From positions 4,282 to 68,281 of the forward strand of contig CAINNK010000012.1 in NCBI GenBank assembly GCA_903851135.1: a stretch of 64,000 bases of DNA, read 5' to 3'. The translations under genes and the position numbers were made by a program. Every line of letters starts with the position of its first letter. The stretch's first letter is position 1. Shown piece by piece: positions 13,780 through 38,123 of this stretch. The DNA is from an uncultured bacterium. GTDB lineage: Bacteria > Patescibacteriota > Minisyncoccia > Moranbacterales > GWC2-37-73. The notes below the pieces were generated by a model. It was not told the origin of the DNA, ran no database searches, and saw nothing but the letters and a program-made list of their open reading frames with translations.

Positions 13780-14532
13780 ATGCGAACGGAAAAATTTTTG
13801 GAGGAAATTGGAATTGAAGGCAAGAAAGCGGAAATTTATCTGGCTTGTTTGGAGTTGGGCGGAGCCACGGCCTATTTGATTGCCAAAAAAGCTGGGATCA
13901 AAAGACCGACGGCCTATGATATCATCAACCAATTGCTTAGTGAGGGCTTGGTTCACAAGTCAATCAAGAGTGGGGCGACCCATTTTTCGCCGACTGATCC
14001 GCAGGTGCTTATCAACAAAACCAAGGAGCGAATGGCAAAAATTGAAAAAGTGATGCCGTTGCTGCAAAATTTGTACAATTCTCCCAAAACCAAACCTTTC
14101 ATTCAATATTTTGAAGGGCGTGAAGGAATTCGCGAAATGTATGAAGACAGTTTGCGGTCACTCAAGAAAGGCGAAGAAATTTTGGGTTATGTGGGCGAAG
14201 GAATCACGCAGCACTTACCAGAGTATACCCAGGATTATGTCCAAAGAAGAACTGAAAAGGGCATTGTTTTTCGGGGAATTTACAAAGCTGCGCCAGAAAT
14301 TGTGGCCTATATGCGGAAAAATAAAGAGCAACTCAGGGTTGGCAGAATTCTGAGTGAAAAAGCTTTTCCAGTTTCCAATGAAATTAATATTTACAAAAAC
14401 AAAATGGCCATTGCCAGTTATGGCCGCGAAATGTTTGGAATGTTGATTGAATCAGAAGAAATAGTGCGCACTCAAAAAGCCATTTTTGAATTGGCTTGGC
14501 GCGGAGCCGAGGGGTTGGAAATCACAGGCTAG
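13780..14532 (+). CDS. TrmB-like winged-HTH transcriptional regulator (paralog)
   Basis: N-terminal HTH EIYLACLELGGATAYLIAKKAGIKRPTAYDIINQLLSEGLV; C-terminal FEGREGIREMYED region shared with paralogs at 21696 and 37380. Confidence 0.7.
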   Translation: MRTEKFLEEIGIEGKKAEIYLACLELGGATAYLIAKKAGIKRPTAYDIINQLLSEGLVHKSIKSGATHFSPTDPQVLINKTKERMAKIEKVMPLLQNLYNSPKTKPFIQYFEGREGIREMYEDSLRSLKKGEEILGYVGEGITQHLPEYTQDYVQRRTEKGIVFRGIYKAAPEIVAYMRKNKEQLRVGRILSEKAFPVSNEINIYKNKMAIASYGREMFGMLIESEEIVRTQKAIFELAWRGAEGLEITG

Positions 14533-14782: not shown

Positions 14783-17700
14783 ATGGTTAAAATTATCAAT
14801 CAAAATAATCCTGCCAATCCTTCCGTTCAAATCGCAGCAGACAAACTGTTGCAGAAAATGCGAGGACAATCAGAAGAAGAGCAGGCAGCTTTGCTGGCCA
14901 ATGCTTATGGTTTGCCATATGTTGATTTGAACATTTTCCCAGTCAGTTCTGAAAAAATCAGAACCATCAGTGAAGAAGATTCTCGGCAATACAAAATGGC
15001 GGTGTTTCAAAAAGTTGGAAAGGAAACCAGGATCGGTGTGCTCGACCCGTCTAGCGAGGGCATGCTTTTGCATCTCGAAAAACTAAAGAAAGAAAATGGC
15101 TGGATGATAATCCTGTATGTCATCTCGCAATCATCGCTGGAAAAAATTTGGAAGAGATATCAAGAAGTTCCTTTGCTTGAAAACCTTGAAGCGATGCAAA
15201 TTTCTCTGAGCGGTGAAGACCTGGAACGATTTGATGAGGAATTTGGCAGCATGCTGGATTTGAAAAAACGCATCAAGGAAATTCCAACCACCCAGATAAT
15301 TTCCATTATCATGGCTGGCGCTGTCAAAATGAAAGCCAGTGACATTCACTTTGAACCTCAAGAAAAAGAAGTGCGGATGCGTTTTCGTGTGGATGGTATT
15401 TTGCAAAATATCGGAGATTTTCCAGCAGATGTTTATCATTTTATTCTCTCCAGAATCAAAATGATGGGCAAGATGAAAATCAACATCAAGGACATTGCTC
15501 AAGACGGTCATTTTTCAATTGACATGACGGATGGCAAAATCAATGTGCGTACCAGCATCATTCCCGGTAATCACGGAGAATCAGTAGTAATGAGGCTTTT
15601 GAGTCAAGCTGACACCCTTTTGTCTGTTGAAGATTTGGGCTTGCGAGGATTGGCCTATGAAAATGTGCAAAAAGAAATTACCAAGCCCCATGGCATGATT
15701 TTAACAACCGGACCAACCGGTAGCGGGAAAACTACCACCTTGTATGCTTTGGTAAACAAACTTAATACGCAAGGGGTCAAAATAATCACCATCGAAGATC
15801 CGATTGAATATGAAATTAAAAACATTTCCCAAACTCAAGTTGCCAAAGATCGTAACTATACTTTTGCGGAAGGGCTTCGCGCGATTGTGCGTCAAGATCC
15901 GGACGTTATTTTAGTGGGAGAAATTCGAGATGAAGAAACTTCTGACATTTCAATTAATGCAGCGCTTACTGGCCATTTGGTGCTTTCAACACTCCACACC
16001 AATAATGCGCCAGCTTCGATTCCGCGTTTTATTGAGTTGGGAGTTAAACCGAATTTGATCGCGCCTTCTGTTAATGCTTTTATCGCTCAGCGCTTAGTGC
16101 GAAAGCTTTGCCCGCATTGCAAAGAAAGCTATGAGCCAGCCAAGGAAACAATTGATTCCATGAAAAAAATTCTTTCGATTATTTCGCCGAAAGCCAAAAT
16201 CGAAATTCCCAAAGAGGTTAAATCGCTATATCGTCCAGTTGGTTGTGACAAATGTCACGGGCTTGGTTTCAAAGGACGAATTGGAATTTTCGAAGTTCTG
16301 ACAATCAGTGAAAGTGTGGAAAAATTGATTCTTGAAATGGGCAGCGAAAGAGAAATAACTCAAGCAGCGCTGGAAGATGGCATGATAACCATGGCGCAAG
16401 ACGGAATTCTCAAGGCGATTGAGGGCGTAACTTCAATGGAAGAAGTTTGGCGTGCCACTGGGCAAACTGATTTTCTGGAAGACATCTATGCCAAGCTCAT
16501 GGAGTCTTCACTTTCACGCTCGATTGAAGTGACCAAAGATGATTTGGATTTCGTTTTTGAAAACATGACGTCCATTGACTCACTTGGGGGCATGATTAAG
16601 GAGGCTAATCAAAAAAGTATAGCCAAATATTTATTTGCCAGTAGTTTGCTTTTAGATGTTGGTGATATTCACATTGAACCAGAAGAGCATGATGTTAAAA
16701 TTCGTTTTCGAATTGATGGAATTTTGCAAACAGTTGCCATGGTTCCCTTAAATGAATACCCAAGCATTCTGGGCGAAATAAAATTTTTGAGCGGCTTTGC
16801 CAGTGAAGTCCGCGGCGGAGTGATTGATGGTCGTTTCATGATTTCACTTGAAGAGCCTTTTAAAAATATTTCTGAAACTAAAATTGACGTGCGCGTTTCG
16901 ATTATTCTGGGTGGCTACGGCGAAACAGTTGTAATGCGAATTTTGAACAAGTCTTCCATCACGCTTGATATTGAAAAATTGGGCATTCGCCAGCAAAATT
17001 TGGAAAAAATTCTAAGAGAATCGAAAAAACCGCATGGTGTGTTCCTCAACACTGGTCCAACCGGCAGCGGAAAAACCACAACCTTGTACAGTCTTTTGAA
17101 AGTGCTTAACAAATCAGAAGTGAAAATTATCACCGTTGAAGATCCGATTGAATATCAATTGGAAGGGATTTTGCAAACTCCTGTTAATGACAAAGAAGGG
17201 TATACTTTTGCTACTGCCTTGAGAGCTTTGTTGCGTCAAAACCCTGACATTATGATGATTGGTGAAATTCGCGATGAAGAAACTGCCAACATCGCCGTGC
17301 AAGCGGCTCTGACTGGCCACTCAATCCTTTCAACTTTGCACACCAACGATGCAGCTGGCTCAATTGCGCGTTTGGCCAACATGGGCGTGCGTGGTGATGA
17401 CATGGCTACTGCTATCAATGCCTTGATGGCCCAGCGTCTGGTTAGAAAACTTTGTGATTGTCGAGAAAAACGCCAGGCTTCGCCTGAAGAAAAAAACAAA
17501 ATTGAAAAAATTCTCGCCAGTGTTTCTGCCAAGTCTGGTGTGACCATTCCTACTGCTGATTTTGTTTTCCAGCCAAAGGGCTGCGAGAAATGCAAGGGCC
17601 TTGGCTACAAAGGACGCACCACGATTAGCGAAGTTTTGGTGGTTGACCGCGAAATCGAAGAGCTTATCAATCAAGGTGCATCTTCTTCTCAACTTCAAGA

Positions 17701-17800
17701 CAAAGCCATTGAAAACGGAATGATCACCATGGAGCAAGACGGAATGGTTAAAGTGTTGGAAGGCGAAACAACATTGGACGAAGTGGAGAGAGTGGTGTAG
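14783..17800 (+). CDS. tandem-fused GspE/PilB-type secretion ATPase (two complete ATPase modules in one 1005-aa protein)
   Basis: GspE N-domain then two copies of the ATPase core: Walker A TGPTGSGKTTTLYA / TGPTGSGKTTTLYS, Asp-box DPDVILVGEIRD / NPDIMMIGEIRD, His-box TGHLVLSTLHTN / TGHSILSTLHTN, and two tetracysteine Zn-fingers (CPHC..CDKC and CDC..CEKC). Confidence 0.9.
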   Translation: MVKIINQNNPANPSVQIAADKLLQKMRGQSEEEQAALLANAYGLPYVDLNIFPVSSEKIRTISEEDSRQYKMAVFQKVGKETRIGVLDPSSEGMLLHLEKLKKENGWMIILYVISQSSLEKIWKRYQEVPLLENLEAMQISLSGEDLERFDEEFGSMLDLKKRIKEIPTTQIISIIMAGAVKMKASDIHFEPQEKEVRMRFRVDGILQNIGDFPADVYHFILSRIKMMGKMKINIKDIAQDGHFSIDMTDGKINVRTSIIPGNHGESVVMRLLSQADTLLSVEDLGLRGLAYENVQKEITKPHGMILTTGPTGSGKTTTLYALVNKLNTQGVKIITIEDPIEYEIKNISQTQVAKDRNYTFAEGLRAIVRQDPDVILVGEIRDEETSDISINAALTGHLVLSTLHTNNAPASIPRFIELGVKPNLIAPSVNAFIAQRLVRKLCPHCKESYEPAKETIDSMKKILSIISPKAKIEIPKEVKSLYRPVGCDKCHGLGFKGRIGIFEVLTISESVEKLILEMGSEREITQAALEDGMITMAQDGILKAIEGVTSMEEVWRATGQTDFLEDIYAKLMESSLSRSIEVTKDDLDFVFENMTSIDSLGGMIKEANQKSIAKYLFASSLLLDVGDIHIEPEEHDVKIRFRIDGILQTVAMVPLNEYPSILGEIKFLSGFASEVRGGVIDGRFMISLEEPFKNISETKIDVRVSIILGGYGETVVMRILNKSSITLDIEKLGIRQQNLEKILRESKKPHGVFLNTGPTGSGKTTTLYSLLKVLNKSEVKIITVEDPIEYQLEGILQTPVNDKEGYTFATALRALLRQNPDIMMIGEIRDEETANIAVQAALTGHSILSTLHTNDAAGSIARLANMGVRGDDMATAINALMAQRLVRKLCDCREKRQASPEEKNKIEKILASVSAKSGVTIPTADFVFQPKGCEKCKGLGYKGRTTISEVLVVDREIEELINQGASSSQLQDKAIENGMITMEQDGMVKVLEGETTLDEVERVV

Positions 17801-18046: not shown

Positions 18047-18595
18047 TTATTGTTTTTCGACAGGGACTTTTTCTCTGTCGTCTGGCAAAACAGTTTCCCT
18101 GCAAGCAACCATCAGCGCAAATTGATTAAAGAAAAGATGTTCTTTTTCAAGAAAATCCTTAAGAGTGTTTTCTGTTTCTGGAGCTAGATTTTCTCCAACT
18201 TGGTTCTTGATTTTTAACACATCTTTGACAGCTTTTTCAAACTCAGCGTGCCACAAAGATTGGTCCTCCTGCCAAGTTTCATCGCTGGCTTTTTCAAAAT
18301 CTTGATTAAATGCAACCGTGCAATCAGTAAAACATTTGGCAGTTTCAATTATACTATCCTTGAAATGCTCAATGTTTTTTGTGTATTCAGTTGGGCTTAA
18401 AAGGTTTTTTAATGAATCAAAATAATCCATCAAAACAAAATAATAATTGGAAAGTTCTTCAAACTTTTTCACATTATTTCTCAAACTTTTTTCTACTCCT
18501 TGATATTTTTCCAGCCTCTCTCCTTCTGAAAGTTCAAATGGGTGCAGTTTAGAAATTTCAATCCCTACATTTTCAAAGTGAAATTGTTCTGACAT
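18047..18595 (-). CDS. hypothetical protein
   Basis: 182-aa ORF, acidic/helical; no motif. Confidence 0.45.
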   Translation of the reverse strand: MSEQFHFENVGIEISKLHPFELSEGERLEKYQGVEKSLRNNVKKFEELSNYYFVLMDYFDSLKNLLSPTEYTKNIEHFKDSIIETAKCFTDCTVAFNQDFEKASDETWQEDQSLWHAEFEKAVKDVLKIKNQVGENLAPETENTLKDFLEKEHLFFNQFALMVACRETVLPDDREKVPVEKQ

Positions 18596-18816: not shown

Positions 18817-19653
18817 TTAATCAATCAATTCGAGTGCTAATTTACTTAGTTGTTGTCTTCGATTCTTCATTTTGTCTGCGTAGTTATTTTTTTCTGTTTC
18901 ATTCTCTAGTTCTTGGCCCCATGAAACACTAAGAATGCTGGATTTATCAGAGGGATCAAAAACTCCAGAAGAGTCGCTCGAAAAAATATCAACATTAACG
19001 CAAGCAAGCTGAGGTGATTTTATTTCTGTTAGAATTTTGAAAAATTTTGATGTTTTTGGTCTGTACATATAACTAAACCATTCTCCGTAGACTTCACTTG
19101 ATGGACAAGCTTCCTTTATTAATCTGCAGGCTAGCAGTAAGGAATCTCCTTCATTGCAAAATTCATCTATTACACATATTTTTTTGTCGTTCAATTTCAT
19201 GCCAAAGATTTCCAATAGTTGACTTCTTTCGCTTTTGGTAATCTGGCTAAATTGTTCGGGATTAATTTCTGACAGTGGTGTGGCAAGCTGAGTTACTGTT
19301 TTTTCTCTACCAATGTTTAAAAAACTGAAACCAGGTTTAATGTTATTGGACGTGGTGGCATCCCAAATTTTAGATATGAAATACCCAAGTAACCTAGCAC
19401 TCTTATCTAAAAAAATAACCTCCTCAATTGATTCTTCTCTTAATTTGTCAACCACCTTTTTTGCTCGTAGCAATACATTATGACGGTCATTTTCACCTCT
19501 GAATGTTTGGTCGTATTGAATATTTTCTAGGGATCTTTTTTCTTGCATAATCCTTTCCAGTTCTTTGTTATCTGGAGCAATATTTTTTGTACATTCCTCC
19601 TCATGTGCAGTCTTTTTTTTGTAGTTTTCTTGATTTGTTGACATTGTTTCCAT
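18817..19653 (-). CDS. hypothetical protein with PRTase-like motif
   Basis: KICVIDEFCNEGDSLLLACRLI resembles the type I phosphoribosyltransferase PRPP-binding loop; promoter region carries ATGACA-N12-TGTCAT palindrome directly upstream of a TATAAT box (19705-19735). Confidence 0.45.
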   Translation of the reverse strand: METMSTNQENYKKKTAHEEECTKNIAPDNKELERIMQEKRSLENIQYDQTFRGENDRHNVLLRAKKVVDKLREESIEEVIFLDKSARLLGYFISKIWDATTSNNIKPGFSFLNIGREKTVTQLATPLSEINPEQFSQITKSERSQLLEIFGMKLNDKKICVIDEFCNEGDSLLLACRLIKEACPSSEVYGEWFSYMYRPKTSKFFKILTEIKSPQLACVNVDIFSSDSSGVFDPSDKSSILSVSWGQELENETEKNNYADKMKNRRQQLSKLALELID

Positions 19654-19751
19654 ATCATTAGGTCTTTATTTATTATCTAAATTTTTTAGCATTGGACTAG
19701 TGAATACTTATATTATATGACACATTATTAATAATGTCATTTCATAAAAAA

Positions 19752-19786
19752 GAGGTGAGACATATCTAATGTCTCACCTCTAACCA
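19752..19786 (-). terminator. rho-independent terminator downstream of radical SAM gene (minus strand)
   Basis: GAGGTGAGACATATCTAATGTCTCACCTC with A-run on + strand (T-run on minus). Confidence 0.7.
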
Positions 19787-19796
19787 CCTTGACTGC

Positions 19797-20927
19797 TTAG
19801 ACTTTCTTGCGAAAGTTCCAGCACCTGACGGTGTCGACAAACCCCTGCTCAAGCAGATGCTCGTTGTCGAGGTTTACTGCTCGGCGACCGAGGCAAGAAT
19901 GGCACGTTTCTTGGGCGAAGTTTGCGCATTCGTTGCCGCATTTCCCACCATACTTTCGGGCGCGTATGATGCGCATCTCGGTGCTGTTCCAGCAGTCACT
20001 TAGAGATGACGTGTGCATATTGCCAAGGATCAAATCCATAGCTCCAATGCAAGGGCGAACTTCACCGTATTGCGATACATACAAGTGATGCATATATCTG
20101 TCACAAACGGTGCCGACATAGCTTTGTGAAAGTTCCCAAGCGTTGCCAAACTCTTTTGCGTCAATTTCTTGAAGCTCAAGTAGTTTGTTTTTTAGTACTT
20201 GGTCAGATGCACAAAGTTGGCAATTTGTTCCGCGACCACGCTCTAGCAAGCTATCGCAATCAAAAATGATATTATTGATTCTGCAGTAGCGCAGAATTTC
20301 AACAACATCGCTCAGATTATCAAGCATGCCATCTTCGCCAAGCATGATGCTAGTCACCAACGCCATGCGAGATTTGCGACCAAACTTTTTCAAACACTCG
20401 GCTTCATTATTGAATCTCTTGCTCATCAAAAGTTTGATCGCTTCATTGCGTTTCGCCCCATAACCCTTGCGAACAAGGTTTTCAGCGGGATTGCTTGTGA
20501 ACTGATCCTGTTTTTCAGCATCAAGCGTGTTGCCCTTGAGCATGATTTCAATGGGCAGTTCATATAATTCAGCCGCCAATTGCTCAGTTATAAATTCACC
20601 TGTTGTAAACAAGGTGACAAATATCCCAAGTTCCTGGCACTTGCGGATAATCTTCATTGTGAGGTGAAGATTTTTCCCAAGCAATGGTTCACCAGCGCCA
20701 GGAATGCCGATTGAGTCGACACCAAGCTGCTTGGCTTGATTTAAAATTGATTCGTATTGCTCGCAGGAGAGCAATTTCTCCTTTTCAAGCCTCTCACCGC
20801 CACATGCGTAACAGTAGGAACAGAAAAGGTTACAATAACCAGGAATCTCCAACCACATGGTTTGGAGCTTGCCAGTGTTTGCTCTTTCTAATCCGTGCTG
20901 AACTGATTTTGTGCTGATGTTTTTCAT
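19797..20927 (-). CDS. radical SAM enzyme with C-terminal SPASM/twitch-type Cys-rich domain (peptide/protein-modifying maturase family, anSME-like)
   Basis: CNLFCSYCYA = CxxxCxxC radical SAM cluster motif near N-terminus; C-terminal CIGAM..C..CGNECANFAQETCHSC cysteine cluster; RBS GGGAGA before ATG 20927 (MKNIS). Confidence 0.85.
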   Translation of the reverse strand: MKNISTKSVQHGLERANTGKLQTMWLEIPGYCNLFCSYCYACGGERLEKEKLLSCEQYESILNQAKQLGVDSIGIPGAGEPLLGKNLHLTMKIIRKCQELGIFVTLFTTGEFITEQLAAELYELPIEIMLKGNTLDAEKQDQFTSNPAENLVRKGYGAKRNEAIKLLMSKRFNNEAECLKKFGRKSRMALVTSIMLGEDGMLDNLSDVVEILRYCRINNIIFDCDSLLERGRGTNCQLCASDQVLKNKLLELQEIDAKEFGNAWELSQSYVGTVCDRYMHHLYVSQYGEVRPCIGAMDLILGNMHTSSLSDCWNSTEMRIIRARKYGGKCGNECANFAQETCHSCLGRRAVNLDNEHLLEQGFVDTVRCWNFRKKV

Positions 20928-20950
20928 AGTTTTCTCCCTTAATTGATTGA

Positions 20951-20976
20951 TTATGCTTCCGGCCGGAAAGCACAAA
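20951..20976 (-). promoter_or_regulatory. palindromic operator TGCTTTCCGGCCGGAAGCA inside promoter spacer of radical SAM gene
   Basis: minus-strand reading TTTGTG-ctttccggccggaagca-TAATCA; near-identical element before the 100-aa gene at 21442. Confidence 0.6.
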
Positions 20977-21115
20977 GATCAAAAGGAGGAAACACTTCGA
21001 ATTTTTAAGGGACCTTTCCAAATCTCAGCCCACTATTGCTAATGAGCTAGGACAAGGGGTGGAATAATCAGATGATTATTCCACCTGCAAATTTTCAACT
21101 AGCTAAAATGATGTT

Positions 21116-21418
21116 CTACAACTTTTTTATTTCAACTATTTCTTCTGCTGGAACATTTTTTACCATAAAAATGGTGCAGCCCTTTTTGTTTTTCCATGAC
21201 CTTGCTTTTGTTGAATTAATGACGAGGATAATTGCGGTACCGCCTACCTGAGTCCTGCTTCTTCCTGCATAACCAACTGCGCTTTGGTAGTTAGTTGTGA
21301 GAAAAACTACATCAGTGTTTTTGGTCCTATTCTCCGTCAGATTAATTCCACCCACTAAGCCATTTTCCATTATGGAATGGAGATTTTCGCTGCTTGTTCC
21401 ATGAAAGAACTGTGCCAT
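21116..21418 (-). CDS. hypothetical 100-aa protein co-regulated with radical SAM enzyme (candidate substrate/partner)
   Basis: RBS AGGAGC; N-terminal MAQFFHGTSSENLHSIMENGLVGG then Thr/Ser/Asn-rich remainder; same operator as the rSAM gene. Confidence 0.5.
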   Translation of the reverse strand: MAQFFHGTSSENLHSIMENGLVGGINLTENRTKNTDVVFLTTNYQSAVGYAGRSRTQVGGTAIILVINSTKARSWKNKKGCTIFMVKNVPAEEIVEIKKL

Positions 21419-21441
21419 TTTCTGCTCCTTTTTTATAATTT

Positions 21442-21466
21442 ATGCTTCTGGCCAGATAGCATAAAT
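21442..21466 (-). promoter_or_regulatory. palindromic operator TGCTATCTGGCCAGAAGCA in promoter of 100-aa gene
   Basis: minus-strand TTTATG-ctatctggccagaagca-TAAATT; roughly 45 nt of upstream sequence conserved with the rSAM promoter. Confidence 0.6.
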
Positions 21467-21695
21467 TTTGCTAAAGGAGACATGCTAGTTGATTTTCAAG
21501 GAACTTGCTAACTGTGCTAATGTGTTGAGTAATCCATCTCAACATCAAAGCATATCATAAAATGTCAAACATGTCGATAGTAAGATTAGATAGTAATTAA
21601 AATATTGACACTTTATGGCTTGTATGATAGGATATATATGTCGAAACATTTTCCACAACATTTACACTGTCAAATAATTTTTTAAATCTTTTTCA

Positions 21696-22457
21696 ATGAT
21701 AAAAAACCTTCTTTCAGCTCTTAATTTTTCCGAGAAAGAATCGCTCGTCTACTTAGCGCTTCTTGAAGTTGGCAATGGAAAAGCCCAGGAAATTGCAAAA
21801 AAAACGGGACTCAATCGCACGACCGTGTATGATATTTTTGAAACTTTGATGCAAAAAGGTTTGGTGAGTAAATTCAAAAAAGGCTCCGCGACATTTTTCA
21901 ATGCTTTGGAACCAAAACATTTGTTGACCTATTTGGATCGTGAAAAAGAAGAACAATCCAAAAAGATTGAAAAGCAAAAACAAAAAGTCTCCGAGCTTTT
22001 GCCACAATTAATTTCACTTCAAAACATTTTTACCGACAAACCGAAAGTACAATTTTTCGAAGGTGAAAAGGGAATGCGAGAAGCCTATGAAGACACACTT
22101 ACTGCCGATGGAATTCTTTTGGGATATTCTAACTTAGAGACAATCCATGAGGGTTTGCCAAATTTTTTTCCTGAGTATTACAAGCGTCGAGTTGAAAAAA
22201 AGATTTTCGGTCGCGGAATTTTGCCAAGAAATAAAATATCACTCGAAAGAACCACCCATAATCAAGAGGAAATGCGCGACGTTCGTTTTCTGCCTGATGA
22301 GGACATGACCTTTTCACCAGAAGTGAACATTTACAATAACAAAATTTTGATAGTTTCCTGGAAAGAAAAAATGGCCATTCTGATTGAATCCAAAGAATTG
22401 GCTGACTTGCAAAGGCTAACTTTCAATCTTCTTTGGGAAACTTTGCCTAGGAAATAA
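21696..22457 (+). CDS. TrmB-like winged-HTH transcriptional regulator (paralog)
   Basis: ESLVYLALLEVGNGKAQEIAKKTGLNRTTVYDIFETLMQKGLV; FEGEKGMREAYEDTL; promoter TTGACA-17-TAGGAT at 21606. Confidence 0.7.
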   Translation: MIKNLLSALNFSEKESLVYLALLEVGNGKAQEIAKKTGLNRTTVYDIFETLMQKGLVSKFKKGSATFFNALEPKHLLTYLDREKEEQSKKIEKQKQKVSELLPQLISLQNIFTDKPKVQFFEGEKGMREAYEDTLTADGILLGYSNLETIHEGLPNFFPEYYKRRVEKKIFGRGILPRNKISLERTTHNQEEMRDVRFLPDEDMTFSPEVNIYNNKILIVSWKEKMAILIESKELADLQRLTFNLLWETLPRK

Positions 22458-22466
22458 CTTAGTGCC

Positions 22467-22588
22467 TGTCATTCCCGCGGAGGCGGGAATCCAGGTTTAA
22501 TGCAGATTTCTTCCTTTGATAATGGCTCTATAATAATATTTACAATCTTATTGTGATATTCTGGATTCCCGTTTTCACGGGAATGACA
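22467..22588. repeat. GTCATYC...GRATGAC inverted-repeat element, copy 2 (immediately downstream of TrmB paralog)
   Basis: arms TGTCATTCCCGCGGAGGCGGGAATCCAG / CTGGATTCCCGTTTTCACGGGAATGACA, roughly 65-nt AT-rich centre. Confidence 0.6.
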
Positions 22589-22657
22589 AGAAGGTAGCTT
22601 CGTGATAAAAATAAAATTAACACAGATTAAATTAACCTTGACTCAAGTGTTATGTAT

Positions 22658-23503
22658 TTATAAACTCTTTTGATGGATAGCAAAGTCCCTAGCAAGGGTC
22701 TTTTTTAGTTTGGTGGCTTTTTTGTGATTGCGAGAAATCACCAGGCGCATGCGTCCTTGGCGTGACAGAATTTTTTGAATCTTTTCTTTGGCATTTTCGT
22801 TAAAGCTGGTAGCGGTTTGATAAAGTTTTTCAACTTCGTTTGCAATTTCTTTGTCGAGCCAGACTTCAATTAAAAAATCTCCAAAGATGTTTAAATAATA
22901 ATTATTCTCCTTGAACATTGGTTTGGTCAGCATGTTGTATTGACTCCTTGCTCCATCGAAGCTGGAAGCAATGTGTTTGTCCAGTGGGGTGCTGCTTCCG
23001 GCAGTTAGTAAAAACGGATGATCCTTGTGGGCAAACGAATCGATGAAAGCTTGTTCATTTTTATTGCGTGCTAGCAAGAACCATTCATGCGGATTATAGA
23101 AAAAAATCGGCTCTTTTTCTTTAAGCTGTTCAATTAAAATGTAGATAGCGTGCGTCCAAAAGATGTCAGCCTTTTCAACTGTTTGAAAATAATATTTGAT
23201 TCTTTCTTTGTCTTCAAGCCTAAGAAAACTGCCATCGTTGGAATTTTTAACATAGTTTCCTTTCGCATTCTCAAAAAAGTTAGTCATTTCATTGAGCCAA
23301 GAAAGGTTGAGGGATGCTGCTCCCTTGGTGATGATGATACTTTCCTGATCTCGCAAAATTCGCAGAGCGCAGTAAACGGCTTGCTTGGTCGTCTGCGGGC
23401 GAATTTCTTTGATTTTAGCCACCAAATCGAGGCATTTTTGTGGTCCTCTTTTCAGTAAAGAAAGTAAATTTTCTTCAATATTTTTAGGCTTAACTAAAGA
23501 CAT
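22658..23503 (-). CDS. hypothetical protein with N-terminal wHTH-like segment
   Basis: 281-aa ORF; N-terminal CLDLVAKIKEIRPQTTKQAVYCALRILRDQ resembles a winged-helix DNA-binding segment. Confidence 0.4.
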   Translation of the reverse strand: MSLVKPKNIEENLLSLLKRGPQKCLDLVAKIKEIRPQTTKQAVYCALRILRDQESIIITKGAASLNLSWLNEMTNFFENAKGNYVKNSNDGSFLRLEDKERIKYYFQTVEKADIFWTHAIYILIEQLKEKEPIFFYNPHEWFLLARNKNEQAFIDSFAHKDHPFLLTAGSSTPLDKHIASSFDGARSQYNMLTKPMFKENNYYLNIFGDFLIEVWLDKEIANEVEKLYQTATSFNENAKEKIQKILSRQGRMRLVISRNHKKATKLKKTLARDFAIHQKSL

Positions 23504-23596
23504 AAGGCGATATTTTGATACTTATTAGTAAAAAATAATTTTACTGATAAATAAAATATAACACAAAAATAGCAAAATTGTCAAGGTTGGTGTAAT

Positions 23597-24469
23597 ATGA
23601 TTTGTTATGGGATGGGAAATGTTTTTAAACATAATAAAATTTTTATTTTTATGTGTAATTCAGACAAAAAAATTATTATTATAAACGGAGTCATGGGAGT
23701 AATAGGCTCACCGATTTTTTCATATTTTGCTGAACAAGGCGAGCATATTATTTATGGGATAAGCAGACGGGGTCTTTATTTTGAAGAATATTTAAATACA
23801 AATAGTGGAAAGCTTTTTGAAAAGAACTTGGTTTTTTCTGTGGCAGACTATAAAAAAGATAACTATGAAATCGACATTGATAATTTCGTTGAGGCACTTC
23901 CTGATTTGCCAATAGTTTTTATACACACAATGGGAGAATATGTTACTGAAATGAACAGAAGCGGAGAAATAAAAGTCAACAATGACAATGATGGTGATGG
24001 AATTGATGATAATGTGAAACGCTTGACCTATGATGTTTCAATGTCATTTTGCAAGAAATTGTCGCAATTGAAATCGCAGGTTACTTTTGTTCAAATAGGC
24101 TCTCTTTCGGACAAATATCGGATTGATATTCATGGATCATGGTTAAGGTCTATGGACTTATTAAAATGCGACTTGAAAAATCTTTGCGAGAAGTATCAAA
24201 ATTTTAATGCTTTAATTTTGAATGTTTCTTCTGTATTAACTCCGAAAGAACTTATTGATAGGCCGTTTGTTTCCTTGAAAACAAATGCTGATATGCGCTA
24301 TTGGCTACCCCCAGTTGAAATTGCAAGATTTATTGATGGATATACTGGCACAGAGAAAAAAAGGCTTAATGAGGAAGAGCTTTATAGGAAATGGCCAAAC
24401 ATAACTCAAGATCATTTTTCTTTAGAGTCTTATAAGATTAGGCGCAGTAAAGAACTTTTTAAGGACTAG
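23597..24469 (+). CDS. NAD(P)-binding Rossmann-fold protein (epimerase/reductase-like), start uncertain
   Basis: KIIIINGVMGVIGSPI (GxxGxxG) close to N-terminus; alternative Met starts at +6 and +19. Confidence 0.5.
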   Translation: MICYGMGNVFKHNKIFIFMCNSDKKIIIINGVMGVIGSPIFSYFAEQGEHIIYGISRRGLYFEEYLNTNSGKLFEKNLVFSVADYKKDNYEIDIDNFVEALPDLPIVFIHTMGEYVTEMNRSGEIKVNNDNDGDGIDDNVKRLTYDVSMSFCKKLSQLKSQVTFVQIGSLSDKYRIDIHGSWLRSMDLLKCDLKNLCEKYQNFNALILNVSSVLTPKELIDRPFVSLKTNADMRYWLPPVEIARFIDGYTGTEKKRLNEEELYRKWPNITQDHFSLESYKIRRSKELFKD

Positions 24470-26073: not shown

Positions 26074-26847
26074 TTATTTTTTCTTTATCTCACTCCATAA
26101 ATTGCTAAAAACTTCACGCAAATTATGTGCCATGACCGGATTATAAATTTCAATCAGATAAAATGGGCGATTCTGCGTATAAATCATGATAATATAATCT
26201 CCAATAATCCAAAAAGAGGAAGTGAAATTTTTGCCAGTGCCCCAAAAATTGATTTCTCGTTGGGCGATTTTTTTTTCCACCATTTTCTTTTCAATTTCTG
26301 AAGCGTTGCTAAACATTTTCAATTGAATATTCTGAGTCGAAGGAGTTTTTAGCCAAAAAGCATCAATCCATTTTTTGTAGTGAGCCACAAGCGTATGGTC
26401 TTGAAAACCCCACCAGGTACTATCATACTTTTTTGCACTTTTGTTCCAGTCATTAGTTTGTTTATACAAATAATCTTCTAAATCAGCTTCTTCGATAAAT
26501 CTAATCTTTGGCATTGCATATTGCTGATTGGTTGGTAATTTCGATAATTCCTCCATCGCTTGTGTAATGAGTTTCTCTTCTTCCTTGAGTGACTGTTTCT
26601 TTTTTTCCAGCATATTGGTGAGTTGTTCTGGCGGAAGCGCCACTAAATAGATATACTTTTGGCCGATATCTTCAATTAAAACGCCCTTTTGGATTAAGCT
26701 CTTGGCGACGCTATAAACCGTTGTTCTATTGATGCCTGTATTCTTGGCAATTCTAACCGGAGTTGATCGCCCTAGGCGTAAAGCTTCAAGATAGATTTCT
26801 ACCTCTTTATCATTAAAGCCAATTTTTTTGAGTATTTCTTGAATCAT
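26074..26847 (-). CDS. TrmB-like winged-HTH transcriptional regulator (paralog)
   Basis: EIYLEALRLGRSTPVRIAKNTGINRTTVYSVAKSLIQKGVL; minus-strand promoter TTGACT-17-TATAAT ends 8 nt before the ATG (leaderless). Confidence 0.7.
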   Translation of the reverse strand: MIQEILKKIGFNDKEVEIYLEALRLGRSTPVRIAKNTGINRTTVYSVAKSLIQKGVLIEDIGQKYIYLVALPPEQLTNMLEKKKQSLKEEEKLITQAMEELSKLPTNQQYAMPKIRFIEEADLEDYLYKQTNDWNKSAKKYDSTWWGFQDHTLVAHYKKWIDAFWLKTPSTQNIQLKMFSNASEIEKKMVEKKIAQREINFWGTGKNFTSSFWIIGDYIIMIYTQNRPFYLIEIYNPVMAHNLREVFSNLWSEIKKK

Positions 26848-35085: not shown

Positions 35086-35394
35086 CTAACAAACAATAGG
35101 GTTCATAATAATTTTTATGTCAAACAATCTATCGTTATGTCCCCTAAGAGAAGCATTTTGGGCATGAAGCTCCTCAATCTCTAGCTTCAAACTCTCTAGA
35201 GTTTCTACTTCTCCGCATTCTTCTGCGGACTTTTCTGCACTTTCGATGGGTTTGTATTTGGTGATTTCTTCGCCTGTTTCATTAAGCAATTCATCATTGT
35301 ATTCCCTAAGGGAAATACTTTGGGCGCGAAGTGACTTGATCTCGAGCTTCAAGCTCGCTAGAGTTTCTTCGTGTCCGCATTTTTCTGTTTTCAT
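35086..35394 (-). CDS. hypothetical coiled-coil protein with internal 2x roughly 45-aa repeat
   Basis: GGAGA RBS; repeats EETLASLKLEIKSLRAQSISLREYND / VETLESLKLEIEELHAQNASLRGHND. Confidence 0.4.
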   Translation of the reverse strand: MKTEKCGHEETLASLKLEIKSLRAQSISLREYNDELLNETGEEITKYKPIESAEKSAEECGEVETLESLKLEIEELHAQNASLRGHNDRLFDIKIIMNPIVC

Positions 35395-35545
35395 TTTTTC
35401 TCCGTTGGTTGCGTTTTTAAATAACTTTTTGTTAGATGATAGGTTATTCCTAATTCATCTTAACGAGCAAGTATATACTATTTTTGGTATTTTATCAATA
35501 GTAAAAAATGATAATATGCCTAAAAATAGCTTAAAAATAGGATAA

Positions 35546-35682: not shown

Positions 35683-36375
35683 CTATTTTTTCTTCGCCCT
35701 AAACAGAAAATAACCAGGATAGTTTTCTCCGTCAATGCACTCAGTGCATTCCTTTGTGTCAGCTTTTTCATGAAATTGTTCAATGATAAAATTATCAAAG
35801 AGCATATTTGAAAAGTAATCATTAAATGTATGGCTCCATTCTTTCAGAGGTAATGTATGCTCATATATCCATGAAACAACCACTTCCTTTTTGAAATAAT
35901 CTCTTGGTCGCTCAGGTTTTTCCAGAAAGTGCCTGACTGGATGAGTTGCTAAGACAATGAAATAACCGCCAGGCTTTAAAACCCTAATGACTTCATTGTA
36001 AAAATGTTCAATACTTTCAAACGCTTGTGGCGCATATTTTGAAACAACGACATCAAAAGTCTTATCTTCAAATGGAATAGCGTCAGATAGTCCAATTTTT
36101 ACGGAAGCTTCACCTAGTCTTTTGTTTGCAAATGCAACTTCCTTATCAGATGCATCAATACCACTAACCTTAAAGCCAAAAGTATCTCTATAATGTAAAA
36201 GATCATGTCCGCTGCCACAGGCCACGTCAAGTAATTTTTTTCCTTTTGTTTCAAAATTTAAAAATGTATAAAATAAGGCTCTGCTTTCCTTATCATACTT
36301 GAGCGTCTTCCAATCATGTTCATCTGCCCAGCTATTATATTGATCAACTGTATATATGCTTTTATTGCTAATCAT
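35683..36375 (-). CDS. class I SAM-dependent methyltransferase
   Basis: motif I LLDVACGSGHDLLHY, motif post-I/II FDVVVS, motif III RVLKPGGYFIV. Confidence 0.8.
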   Translation of the reverse strand: MISNKSIYTVDQYNSWADEHDWKTLKYDKESRALFYTFLNFETKGKKLLDVACGSGHDLLHYRDTFGFKVSGIDASDKEVAFANKRLGEASVKIGLSDAIPFEDKTFDVVVSKYAPQAFESIEHFYNEVIRVLKPGGYFIVLATHPVRHFLEKPERPRDYFKKEVVVSWIYEHTLPLKEWSHTFNDYFSNMLFDNFIIEQFHEKADTKECTECIDGENYPGYFLFRAKKK

Positions 36376-36395
36376 ATTTTTTAATTTAATTTAAT

Positions 36396-37028
36396 TTAAT
36401 TCTGCTTGATTCTGCTTGTTACTTTTGACCTATTTCCATTTGAAAGGAAGCTTACTAGAACTTTTGGCATAATTCCAGTTTCTCTTGCTATTCTTTCTCT
36501 TCCTTTGTAATCAGATTTTTCAGCAACTGAGAATATGTCAACAACTTCCACTCCAGCGCTTCTGAGCAACTTAACCATCGCTATGATAGTGCCGCCAGTA
36601 TCTATGATGTCGTCGACGATGATTGCTCTTTTTAAATTTGTCGAAAGACCATTTAGATACAATTTTCCATCCGTGTAGGCATTTTTAAAATCCACATGTA
36701 TTTCTCCTTCAAAACCAGCTGGATTCCATTTTGTTAGGGTGAAGGGTTTGTTAAATTGCATAGACAATATCGCGCAGAGATAGCCGCCCCTGTCTTCTTC
36801 ACCAACAATAAAATCAATATCATCGAAATTCACAATGCGAGAAGTTTCTTCTGCTATTTGTCTTAATAATTCAGGCCTTGTAATGGGAGCATGATCCGTT
36901 AAAGAGTTGACGCAGTATTTTTTGCCAGAAACCAATTTAATAGGTTTTTCGTTGAAAGTTTCAAAGATGTAATCACGCGCAGTATCTTTTTTTGAGGATA
37001 TAATACTTTTTTGATTCATATTTAGCAT
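36396..37028 (-). CDS. phosphoribosyltransferase (type I PRTase) family protein
   Basis: PRPP-binding motif RAIIVDDIIDTGGTIIAMVKLL. Confidence 0.75.
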   Translation of the reverse strand: MLNMNQKSIISSKKDTARDYIFETFNEKPIKLVSGKKYCVNSLTDHAPITRPELLRQIAEETSRIVNFDDIDFIVGEEDRGGYLCAILSMQFNKPFTLTKWNPAGFEGEIHVDFKNAYTDGKLYLNGLSTNLKRAIIVDDIIDTGGTIIAMVKLLRSAGVEVVDIFSVAEKSDYKGRERIARETGIMPKVLVSFLSNGNRSKVTSRIKQN

Positions 37029-37379: not shown

Positions 37380-38123
37380 ATGGATCAAGACTTAATAAAA
37401 CTTTTGGAAACGACGGGTTTCACGGAAAAAGAGGCACAAGTGTATTTGGCGCTGGTTGAGCTTGGGACGGGAAACGTGACGGATATTTCGAAAACAACCA
37501 AGCTCAAGCGCTCGATTATTTATGTTATTTTGGAAGGCTTGATGAAAAGGGGCTATGCTAGTGAACTGCCAAATTTGAAAATCAACACCTATCAAGCGAC
37601 TGACCCGACTGTGATTTTGTCGCAACTCAAAAATGTGGCCAAAAATTTTTCAGAAATGCTCCCAATGATTCGCACGCTCGGCAGCAAGGGTAAGAGCAGA
37701 CCGAAAATCAGTTATTACGACACGAAAGAAGCAATCTTGAAGGCCTGGGAGATTATGGGTAACGAGGATGATATCTTTTATATTTATTCCTGCGAGAGAA
37801 GCGAACAGCATTATCCTGGCATAACTGATAAATGGGCTAAGGGATATAACAAAAAGATTTATCCTTTGGGAAATCGACATTTGGTGCCGAACAATAAAAG
37901 CGAAGTTGAAATAGCTCAAAAGTTTTTAGCAGTCGGCGAAAGAGTACGCTCGCTAGATGATTTAAATGGCATGAATATGGACTTTACTCTTTTCTCCAAT
38001 AAAATTTCAATTGTTTCACTTGAGGAAAATCCTTTTATTGTGGTCATTGAATCTGAGGAATTGGTCAAATCCATCCGGCCGATTTTTGAAATTGCCTGGG
38101 CGAAGGGAAAAGAGGTAAAATAG
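37380..38123 (+). CDS. TrmB-like winged-HTH transcriptional regulator (paralog)
   Basis: EAQVYLALVELGTGNVTDISKTTKLKRSIIYVILEGLMKRGY; collinear with the partial paralog at 1..372. Confidence 0.7.
   Translation: MDQDLIKLLETTGFTEKEAQVYLALVELGTGNVTDISKTTKLKRSIIYVILEGLMKRGYASELPNLKINTYQATDPTVILSQLKNVAKNFSEMLPMIRTLGSKGKSRPKISYYDTKEAILKAWEIMGNEDDIFYIYSCERSEQHYPGITDKWAKGYNKKIYPLGNRHLVPNNKSEVEIAQKFLAVGERVRSLDDLNGMNMDFTLFSNKISIVSLEENPFIVVIESEELVKSIRPIFEIAWAKGKEVK

Follow-up and report, generated by a model that had tools for sequence, protein, structure and literature searches.

A candidate 5′ leader hairpin common to a radical-SAM/SPASM gene and a minimal ADP-ribosyltransferase-fold gene of Patescibacteria

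The stretch of DNA analyzed here, referred to as the window, comprises 64,000 nucleotides (nt) of contig CAINNK010000012.1 (GenBank assembly GCA_903851135.1) from an uncultured bacterium of the Moranbacterales, Patescibacteriota. Its minus strand carries a gene for a radical S-adenosylmethionine (SAM) enzyme with a SPASM domain and, upstream of it, a gene for a 100-amino acid (aa) protein with a predicted ADP-ribosyltransferase (ART) fold, here called mini-ART. A gene for a TrmB-family regulator diverges from them, and a phosphoribosyltransferase (PRT)-like gene follows on the other side. The radical-SAM gene and the 100-aa gene are each preceded by one copy of the main subject of this article, a candidate 5′ leader hairpin named P2 that includes the Shine-Dalgarno (SD) sequence. 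A second, smaller stem-loop (P1) and an A-rich box lie further upstream. Table 1 collects the features of the locus; positions are those of the window, and loci from other genomes are designated L001, L002 and so on.

Table 1. Features of the locus, in order of their position in the window.
Feature	Position	Strand	Description
PRT-like gene, 278 aa	18817..19653	-	Separate transcription unit; lineage-specific neighbour
Promoter of the PRT-like gene	19712..19740	-	ATGACA-17-TATAAT, 11/12
Intrinsic terminator of the radical-SAM unit	19751..19781	-	13-base-pair (bp) stem, then T run
Radical-SAM/SPASM enzyme, 376 aa	19797..20927	-	Pfam Radical_SAM and SPASM above cut-off
P2 copy 2 (before the radical-SAM gene)	20930..20992	-	anti-SD UUUCCUCCUUUUGAUC 20977-20992; palindrome 20954-20972; SD AAGGGAGAAAAC 20929-20940
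Degenerate second copy of P1 and box	20999..21048	-	From alignment of the upstream regions; no recognizable -35/-10
12-bp hairpin after the 100-aa gene	21058..21085	-	No U tract; -17.7 kcal/mol; weak terminator or stability element
Predicted minimal ART-fold protein, 100 aa	21116..21418	-	HGT ... E-x-R-x-x-N ... VFLTT ... YA ... GG
P2 copy 1 (before the 100-aa gene)	21423..21482	-	anti-SD GUCUCCUUU 21473-21481; palindrome 21443-21461; SD AAAGGAGC 21424-21431
A-rich box AAGUUCCUUGAAAAUC between P1 and P2	21491..21506	-	Kept as AAGYUCAUUGAAAAU in L018, L019, L020, L038 and L039
P1 stem-loop at the predicted transcript 5′ end	21524..21543	-	GUUGAG-AUGGAUUA-CUCAAC, read from sequence
Predicted sigma-70 leader promoter	21549..21577	-	TCGACA-17-TATGCT, TG extension; promoter scan
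TrmB-family winged-helix regulator, 253 aa	21696..22457	+	Pfam TrmB E=1.6e-17; divergent from the leader and the mini-ART gene

The element was first recognized through a palindrome, TGCTWTCYGGCCRGAAGCA, that is present as TGCTTTCCGGCCGGAAGCA before the radical-SAM gene and as TGCTATCTGGCCAGAAGCA before the 100-aa gene, in both cases 21-23 nt 5′ of the start codon. For the radical-SAM gene, whose program-made open reading frame (ORF) spans 19797-20975, the start codon was taken to be ATG 20927 (MKNISTK...) and not TTG 20975 because the homologues all begin with MKN(I/V)S.... A scan of the window that tolerated up to three mismatches found these two sites alone; the chance expectation was 0.05, and 0 of 100 shuffles reached two. 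The upstream regions of the two genes can be aligned over about 140 nt. Near-identity is confined to the palindrome and its surroundings, about 30 nt, and a looser similarity (CATTAGCA, AAGKTCCYTKAAAAWT) continues for about 80 nt on the upstream side, so that the 45 nt of conserved upstream sequence claimed in the original prediction, an earlier reading of this DNA, was a fair description. Its report of the palindrome at both genes was also borne out: the pair is a real, non-random cis element. Since this specific element is common to the two genes, they are very probably co-regulated.

We consider it rather probable that the palindrome is the apical helix of an RNA hairpin of 60-65 nt, P2, that hides the ribosome-binding site. 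Comparison of 20 distinct copies from Patescibacteria gave a three-helix hairpin with the palindrome at the apex and, in the basal helix, an upstream CUCC(U) anti-SD paired with the SD GGAG of the following gene. In the minimum free energy (MFE) fold of copy 1 the SD and anti-SD are paired (-20.9 kcal/mol, z=-2.5), and this copy matches the covariance model with 39.7 bits (E=1.4e-7); the corresponding values for copy 2 are -24.3 kcal/mol, z=-3.26 and 101 bits. GGAG was paired with the upstream CUCC in the MFE fold of each of the 18 distinct copies first collected, and the complementarity of the flanks in these copies had a mean z of -3.2 relative to shuffles. Across the copies the stem comprises about 23-26 bp with small internal loops, and its stability ranges from -19 to -24 kcal/mol.

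The structure is conserved at the apex and below it. All 180 cells of the apical 10-bp helix were paired in the 18 copies, three pairs had changes on both sides, and one pair alternates between G-U (12 copies), A-U (5) and G-C (1). Every copy has a 1-nt bulge of variable base identity in this helix, and the GGCC loop is invariant. In a covariance-model-fitted alignment of 17 copies (A8), 92.4% of the cells were paired and 15 of the 25 pairs showed double-sided changes. None of 500 shuffles matched these values, and alignments slid out of register were about 50% paired with at most six double-changed pairs. Compensatory changes were also found in the lower helices, including the one that contains the SD: CCCGUUU accompanies AAACGGAG in L002, and GGU accompanies ACC in L006. 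P2 and the ATG are separated by 19-32 nt, compared with 64-126 nt between the -10 hexamer and P2. A compensated structure held in fixed register to the SD and the start codon is what would be expected of a cis-regulatory RNA, and P2 appears to have both in this model-fitted alignment of related sequences. A leader peptide starting at an AUG or GUG in the 5′ arm was rejected because the substitutions preserve pairing and not amino acids (LSGRKH versus PFGRRH), and the frames stop after 1, 5 or 31 codons. Anti-anti-SD pairing of the UUGAAAAU box was, as judged by eye, inconsistent between copies and is absent from the leader of the window's 100-aa gene. In the literature we found no paper on this leader or on this radical-SAM family.

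P2 with its flanks (UUUCUCCUUUUGAUCUUUGUGCUUUCCGGCCGGAAGCAUAAUCAAUCAA...AAGGAG) also precedes the radical-SAM genes of L002, L004, L005, L006, L018, L019 and L023, and the proteins of the last three are only 53-56% identical to that of the window. An exact-pattern scan of metagenomes returned 12 loci, seven of them genuine and five chance matches inside ORFs. The genuine copies precede radical-SAM orthologues and, in L040, the gene for a 764-aa B12-type radical-SAM protein that has its own divergent TrmB gene. A scan of viral contigs gave only two chance intragenic matches, already included among the metagenome ones. Two extra copies were recovered with the covariance model, one before a 430-aa radical-SAM paralogue (L006) and one before a gene resembling short-chain dehydrogenases/reductases (SDR) and epimerases (L004). 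P2 therefore behaves as a portable regulatory module, found before five gene families: three radical-SAM families, the 100-aa gene and the SDR-like gene. Its orthologue in the window, ORF 23597-24469, is without P2, the hairpin having been lost. The window gene (region 23480-23660) still has the promoter and the P1-like motif seen in L004 (3387-3469, minus strand), and there is no obvious SD before the likely start (ATGTGTAATTCAGAC).

The leader upstream of P2 has a recurrent design. Of the 20 P2 copies, 16 are accompanied by a -35 resembling TTGACA and an extended -10 of the form TGnTAnnnT. In the window and 15 other hairpin-carrying leaders the -10 hexamer begins exactly 11 nt before a GTYRNGRTG motif that forms the 5′ strand of P1. 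The 3′ strand of P1 ends in ...YAAC, and in other loci the stem is retained with base changes and with loops of between 3 and more than 40 nt. A likeness of P1 to integron attC sites was dismissed, the order GTT...AAC being opposite to that commonly described for attC. The P2 of the radical-SAM gene has no promoter nearby in the window, where the scan called none, or in L031, which also has a counterpart, with changed bases, of the hairpin that follows the 100-aa gene. The degenerate P1 and box before the radical-SAM P2, together with the lack of a recognizable promoter there, suggest that the two genes are probably co-transcribed, each being gated separately at translation; a weak internal promoter before the radical-SAM gene is possible.

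A leader with P1 and no P2 lies at 35395-35475 (-) in the window, 5′ of ORF 35086-35394, which encodes a 102-aa coiled-coil protein with a weak ZapB match; it consists of TTGATA-17-TATACT, 5 nt, a GUUAAGAUGA...UCAUCUAAC hairpin, an A-rich box and an SD. The combination of promoter and P1 precedes unrelated genes in L006 (two cases) and L037 as well, with a TrmB-like gene adjoining each, and looks like a general promoter/5′-leader type of these bacteria.

The original prediction saw in the palindrome a DNA operator located in the -35/-10 spacer of two separate promoters and bound by a common repressor such as a local TrmB-like protein. A near-perfect dyad with only two sites in the window would suit such an operator, and a TrmB-family gene is always found beside the P2-carrying genes. 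However, the proposed hexamers (TTTGTG/TAATCA and TTTATG/TAAATT) agree with TTGACA/TATAAT at only 4 and 7 of 12 positions, are absent from the promoter-scan list and fall within the hairpin stem, and a far better promoter with a conserved position lies upstream. The dyad spacing is broken in all copies by an extra base in one half-site only, and the complementarity runs about 20 nt further on each side, through variable internal loops, into the SD. Moreover, the TrmB proteins neighbouring P2 belong to at least five clades with differing recognition helices, whereas P2 is nearly invariant, and the TrmB protein adjacent to the L006 copy clusters with those of loci that have no P2. Of the common control originally proposed, the shared specific element and the co-regulation stood; a spacer operator is unlikely, and the adjacent TrmB as its repressor was not upheld. 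Candidate TrmB sites, TGTGGAAAAT and TCGACAT, are located at 21571-21657, upstream of the promoter and not at the palindrome, and the divergent TrmB probably controls transcription through such other intergenic sites.

A DNA site could instead serve a conserved global regulator, distinct from the adjacent TrmB, that acts as a roadblock before a small regulon rich in radical-SAM genes. The sequence of P2 is itself strongly conserved between genes whose proteins have diverged to little more than half identity, it is independent of the TrmB clade, and sense and antisense strands fold equally well; all three observations are compatible with a site of this kind. On the other hand, the position of P2 is fixed to the SD and the start codon and not to the promoter, and a DNA site explains neither the anti-SD/SD complementarity with its compensatory changes nor the asymmetric bulge. 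We regard a global regulator as a still less likely explanation than the spacer operator. Operators of the Rex, FNR or CRP type were considered and rejected, as their half-site spacings do not fit.

P2 might also act as RNA in a different manner, mainly as a processing or stability hairpin for an RNase III-type enzyme, whose cleavage would remove the anti-SD strand or destabilize the mRNA. The length of the stem and its small internal loops suffice for a double-strand-specific RNase, and an occluded SD is found in known cleavage-activated leaders, of which E. coli adhE is one. Nevertheless, a generic double-stranded substrate would require far less conservation than is seen in the apical sequence, the GGCC loop and the bulge. 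We give this variant the same low probability as the global regulator.

On balance we lean toward P2 acting as an RNA that sequesters the SD, with a small further share of probability for the RNase-processing variant. The SD lies within the structure, whose register to the start codon is fixed; the dyad spacing is interrupted by the bulge; the long complementarity includes internal loops; wobble pairs in the core number 13 G-U against 0 A-C; and the element is indifferent to the clade of the neighbouring TrmB. Several points weigh against this preference. The transcription start is placed by promoter consensus and conservation alone, Watson-Crick pair statistics would be equal for a DNA palindrome, and the sense and antisense folds do not differ in stability (p=0.41). 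Over all helices G-U cells exceed A-C cells only modestly (23 versus 14), and the ratio in the core comes mainly from one inherited position. Fitting A8 to the model favours structure, and since the Patescibacteria that supplied the copies are related, the shuffle controls overstate significance. The analysis identified neither a ligand or protein partner of P2 nor an alternative "open" structure, and Rfam gave no leader-strand match at E<=10 in the window (two opposite-strand matches were due to chance) and none at E<=1 in five other loci.

From these comparisons we infer where transcription starts, that P2 acts as RNA and that the two genes share a transcript, and the following course of events can be proposed. 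Transcription would start about 90-130 nt before the start codon, from the TTGACA / TGnTAnnnT promoter beside the divergent TrmB gene, at a level set by the TrmB-type regulator. Because the basal helix pairs the anti-SD with GGAG, P2 would then deny ribosomes access until a ligand, a protein or a nuclease opens or cuts the hairpin. In the lineage of the window a mini-ART gene with its own P2 may have come to separate the radical-SAM gene from the ancestral leader, which would account for the order promoter, P1, P2, mini-ART gene, hairpin, degenerate leader, P2, radical-SAM gene.

The radical-SAM/SPASM identity of the 376-aa protein, deduced originally from the CNLFCSYCYA sequence and a C-terminal Cys cluster, was confirmed by scores above the Pfam cut-offs for both domains (PF04055, 35.7 bits versus 29.5; SPASM PF13186, 32.2 bits versus 21.5). 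The cluster motif CX3CX2C corresponds to C32-x3-C36-x2-C39 (CNLFCSYC). The SPASM cysteines, arranged as C275-x12-G-x4-C293, C330-x3-C334-x7-C342-x2-C345 and C369, are invariant or at least 90% conserved among 31 homologues, in which C236 is conserved beside these seven. The spacing of the second SPASM motif is non-canonical, CX3CX7CX2C in place of CX2CX5CX3C. A classification by hidden Markov models, which the original prediction had proposed as a check, thus assigned the SPASM domain and stopped there: the named NCBIfam equivalogs anSME, PqqE, MftC, NirJ, AhbC and MoaA all scored far below their cut-offs, the best being NirJ2 with 61.3 bits versus 500. At E<=1e-10 there are 171 homologues in bacteria of the Candidate Phyla Radiation (CPR) and DPANN archaea, with hosts among Moranbacteria, Parcubacteria, Saccharibacteria, other Patescibacteria, and Nano-, Pace- and Woesearchaeota; the mean identity in a sample of 31 sequences is 49%.

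The enzyme shares with other SPASM enzymes the CX3CX2C motif, the CX12GX4C motif and the seven C-terminal cysteines, and by sequence its best matches are NirJ2, a tungsten-cofactor maturase and MoaA. The solved structures nearest in sequence are those of SkfB, BtrN, SuiB and MoaA, with the match mainly over the N-terminal radical-SAM core. It differs from SkfB, PqqE, MftC, anSME, BtrN and NirJ/AhbC/AhbD in having neither a recognition domain nor a conserved partner gene. Pfam detected no PqqD-like N-terminal recognition domain, and only 31 residues precede C32. No ORF of 18-90 aa that could encode a precursor is conserved within 700 nt of the radical-SAM gene at 24 loci (the radical-SAM loci of the genome collection minus the window's own contig and a fragment covering the C-terminus only); the small "ORFs" that do recur there are shadows of the gene itself, of TrmB or of P2. 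The protein is probably a stand-alone conserved enzyme whose substrate is probably not a peptide. The archaeal lipid enzymes Gms and Tes were rejected as its identity on account of their architecture, Gms being longer than 420 aa with an N-terminal six-helix domain (PMC11186832).

The 100-aa protein, with its Ser/Thr/Asn-rich body, had been proposed as a plausible substrate or partner of the radical-SAM enzyme. It has only four close relatives, and a profile search of 1.8 billion representatives extended the family to 57 relatives, mostly of 95-145 aa, with the common motifs HGT, E-x-R-x-x-N, VFLT, YA and GG-x-P. In Pfam, 9 of 37 members matched Arr-ms and others PARP, Tpt1, ART-PolyVal or DUF3990; in NCBIfam the window protein matched the C-terminal half of Tpt1 (E=9e-6), at profile positions 97-180 of 183. 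An AlphaFold (AF2) model built with the wide family alignment reached a pLDDT of 95.2 (56.6 with five sequences). Foldseek placed this model best on Tpt1 8tg4_A (E=1.7e-6, TM 0.71, Tpt1 range 0.65-0.71, target TM-score about 0.4), with further matches to DarT, Rhs ADP-ribosyltransferase toxins, PARP14 and Arr. The confident model and its placement on the Tpt1 lobe argue for a compact, minimal ART-fold domain and not for a Ser/Thr-rich precursor. In the wider family H6-G7-T8 does not vary and conservation of Y50 is at least 90%; the invariance of E93 is limited to five close homologues, and the C-terminal part cannot be aligned across the wider family. The protein is thus predicted to be a minimal NAD-binding ART fold of the H-Y-[EDQ] clade.

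The model corresponds to the NAD-binding lobe of Tpt1/KptA, HGT motif included, but the protein has no counterpart of the RNA-binding lobe that carries the catalytic Arg and His, and so does not have the two lobes of those enzymes. With the rifampin ADP-ribosyltransferase Arr it has the ART fold in common and is shorter. It differs from both Tpt1 and Arr in an E-x-R-x-x-N loop of its own family and in a third catalytic residue that is not clearly conserved. Some neighbours of mini-ART homologues may hint at a toxin- or defence-like context: a PycTM-domain gene at 3414-3953 of L001, and a 66-aa protein resembling a two-helix membrane protein, encoded directly 3′ of the homologue in L002 (2192-2392) and found also in L007 and one JGI contig.

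The question whether the radical-SAM enzyme modifies the 100-aa protein, as a maturase and its substrate, can be put to the gene neighbourhoods, which were compared at 26 genome loci encoding the radical-SAM family. The adjacency of the two genes and their shared leader element in the window, L002/L007 and L036 speak for such a pair, and some SPASM enzymes, such as anSME, do act on proteins. Across genomes, however, nearly all of the 171 radical-SAM homologues are without the 100-aa gene. It adjoins the radical-SAM gene at 1 of the 24 loci (L007), and its position between the TrmB and radical-SAM genes is limited to the window's clade (window/L003/L036, L002/L007 and one JGI contig). Conversely, homologues exist without a radical-SAM partner: a 101-aa homologue in L001 lies beside TrmB with no radical-SAM gene within 6 kb, and a 48%-identical one (P0125) has neither a radical-SAM nor a TrmB gene nearby. 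Added to the missing recognition domain, the want of a conserved small ORF and the globular ART fold, this distribution largely refutes a maturase-substrate relationship, which we regard as very improbable. The proposal was attractive and wrong, and is corrected here.

The sole recurrent neighbour of the bacterial radical-SAM genes is a divergent TrmB-like gene immediately upstream (20 loci), and the proposal of a TrmB-family regulator as part of the locus was well founded in this respect. Of the two flanking TrmB-like genes named originally, the adjacent one at 21696-22457 belongs to the family; ORF 22658-23503 has no family match. In archaea a divergent gene for a tandem Lrp/AsnC protein, about 320 aa long, recurs as the neighbour at 7 loci, among them the DPANN loci L012, L014, L015, L016, L022 and L025. 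This protein weakly matches the siroheme decarboxylase AhbA/AhbB, and NirJ and AhbC are among the best families of the radical-SAM enzyme. An AhbA/AhbB identity was rejected (about 35 bits versus cut-offs of 125-140; Lrp/AsnC, 85 bits), and tetrapyrrole-type chemistry is kept as a weak lead, with matches far below all cut-offs. Like TrmB/TrmBL1 of Thermococcales, the window's TrmB protein has an N-terminal winged helix and is encoded divergently from its presumed target; it differs in being bacterial, in its length of 253 aa and in a C-terminal half that matches no sugar-binding TrmB domain.

Four TrmB-like paralogues are encoded in the window, at 13780-14532 (+), 21696-22457 (+), 26074-26847 (-) and 37380-38123 (+), each beside a different cargo gene, and L006 has four within 13 kb; a cassette of TrmB divergent from cargo seems to be a recurrent feature of these genomes. 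The TrmB gene and ORF 22658-23503 converge on a long inverted repeat at 22452-22608 whose arms (GUCAUUCCCG...CGGGAAUGAC, inner arms CUGGAUUCC) match almost perfectly. It is probably a bidirectional terminator and has a sub-threshold Rfam match to WsnRNA46 (33.6 bits versus 65.3).

Downstream of the radical-SAM gene no gene recurs across lineages at the 26 loci. The PRT-like gene, which the original prediction named as a neighbour of the pair, does not follow the radical-SAM gene in any other genome; in L004, although it is 85% identical, a homologue of window ORF 18047-18595 takes the place directly 3′ of that gene. The distribution of genes across loci therefore shows that maturase, substrate and PRT do not form a conserved unit. 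The good promoter originally assigned to the PRT-like gene is its own, as claimed. The palindrome described there, ATGACA-N12-TGTCAT at 19717-19740, overlaps this promoter and could by itself be due to chance, as 16 of 100 shuffles also contained a match. The likeness to a PRPP loop is weak: the protein matched Pribosyltran PF00156 over residues 153-184 only (E=0.072, 12.8 bits versus a cut-off of 26.3) and PADLOC ShosT with E=5e-5. It has five database relatives. A 31%-identical homologue in L041 (5001-7454) lies directly upstream of a gene for a 484-aa TrmB-cytidylate kinase fusion, and on the other side of the divergent gap CYTH, AAA_28, 299-aa radical-SAM/SPASM and IucA/IucC-like genes are clustered. 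Elsewhere in the window (35683-37028, minus strand) an operon divergent from TrmB 37380-38123 combines a SAM-dependent methyltransferase-like gene with one for a genuine type I phosphoribosyltransferase (Pfam E=6.6e-12), which is distinct from the PRT-like protein. A further gene, at 14783-17800 (+), encodes a 1005-aa protein with two tandem PilB/GspE-type secretion ATPase units.

The radical-SAM and mini-ART families are uncharacterised members of known superfamilies. Among the enzymes that occur in both CPR bacteria and DPANN archaea the former is one of the better conserved, and knowledge of what opens P2 would give a clue to its substrate or pathway; the latter pushes down the lower size limit of ART-fold proteins. 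Gene regulation in Patescibacteria is almost unexplored, and a compact leader that would gate several cofactor-dependent enzymes at translation, each with a TrmB-type regulator beside it, offers a concrete module for experiments. The association of P2 with three radical-SAM families, an NAD-type SDR-like gene and an NAD-binding ART fold may point to a cofactor- or redox-related signal; SAM, 5′-deoxyadenosine, NAD and iron-sulfur/redox status are conceivable examples of such a common cofactor or state. It is conceivable, though improbable, that P2, perhaps with P1 and the box, is a riboswitch or a protein-bound translational operator of a new class that coordinates a small Patescibacteria regulon. 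If so, it would have no described precedent among the RNA regulators of these reduced genomes and would give a handle on the radical-SAM enzyme that CPR and DPANN have in common.

Among known systems, the SAM-III/SMK box riboswitch, as generally described, resembles P2 in its order of a 5′ anti-SD, an enclosed hairpin and a 3′ SD within a compact element before the start codon, and in its association with SAM-related genes. In contrast to it, P2 has no Rfam match to any SAM class and no evident junction or pseudoknot, and it precedes SAM-consuming enzymes and not SAM synthesis genes. The operators of the MS2/R17 coat protein and of ThrRS, and the IRE/IRP system, are likewise short hairpins with a single bulge and a conserved loop at the ribosome-binding site, and the IRE is one element common to several unrelated mRNAs. 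The GGCC loop and the position of the bulge set P2 apart from these. RNA thermometers of the ROSE and fourU types also pair the SD in a 5′ untranslated region (UTR) hairpin; P2 differs in its G+C-rich, sequence-invariant apex and its long, stable stem. By analogy, then, P2 resembles SD-sequestering riboswitches, protein-bound operator hairpins and cleavage-activated leaders; by the tests used it is a member of none of them, and we regard it as a new candidate cis-regulatory 5′ leader hairpin.

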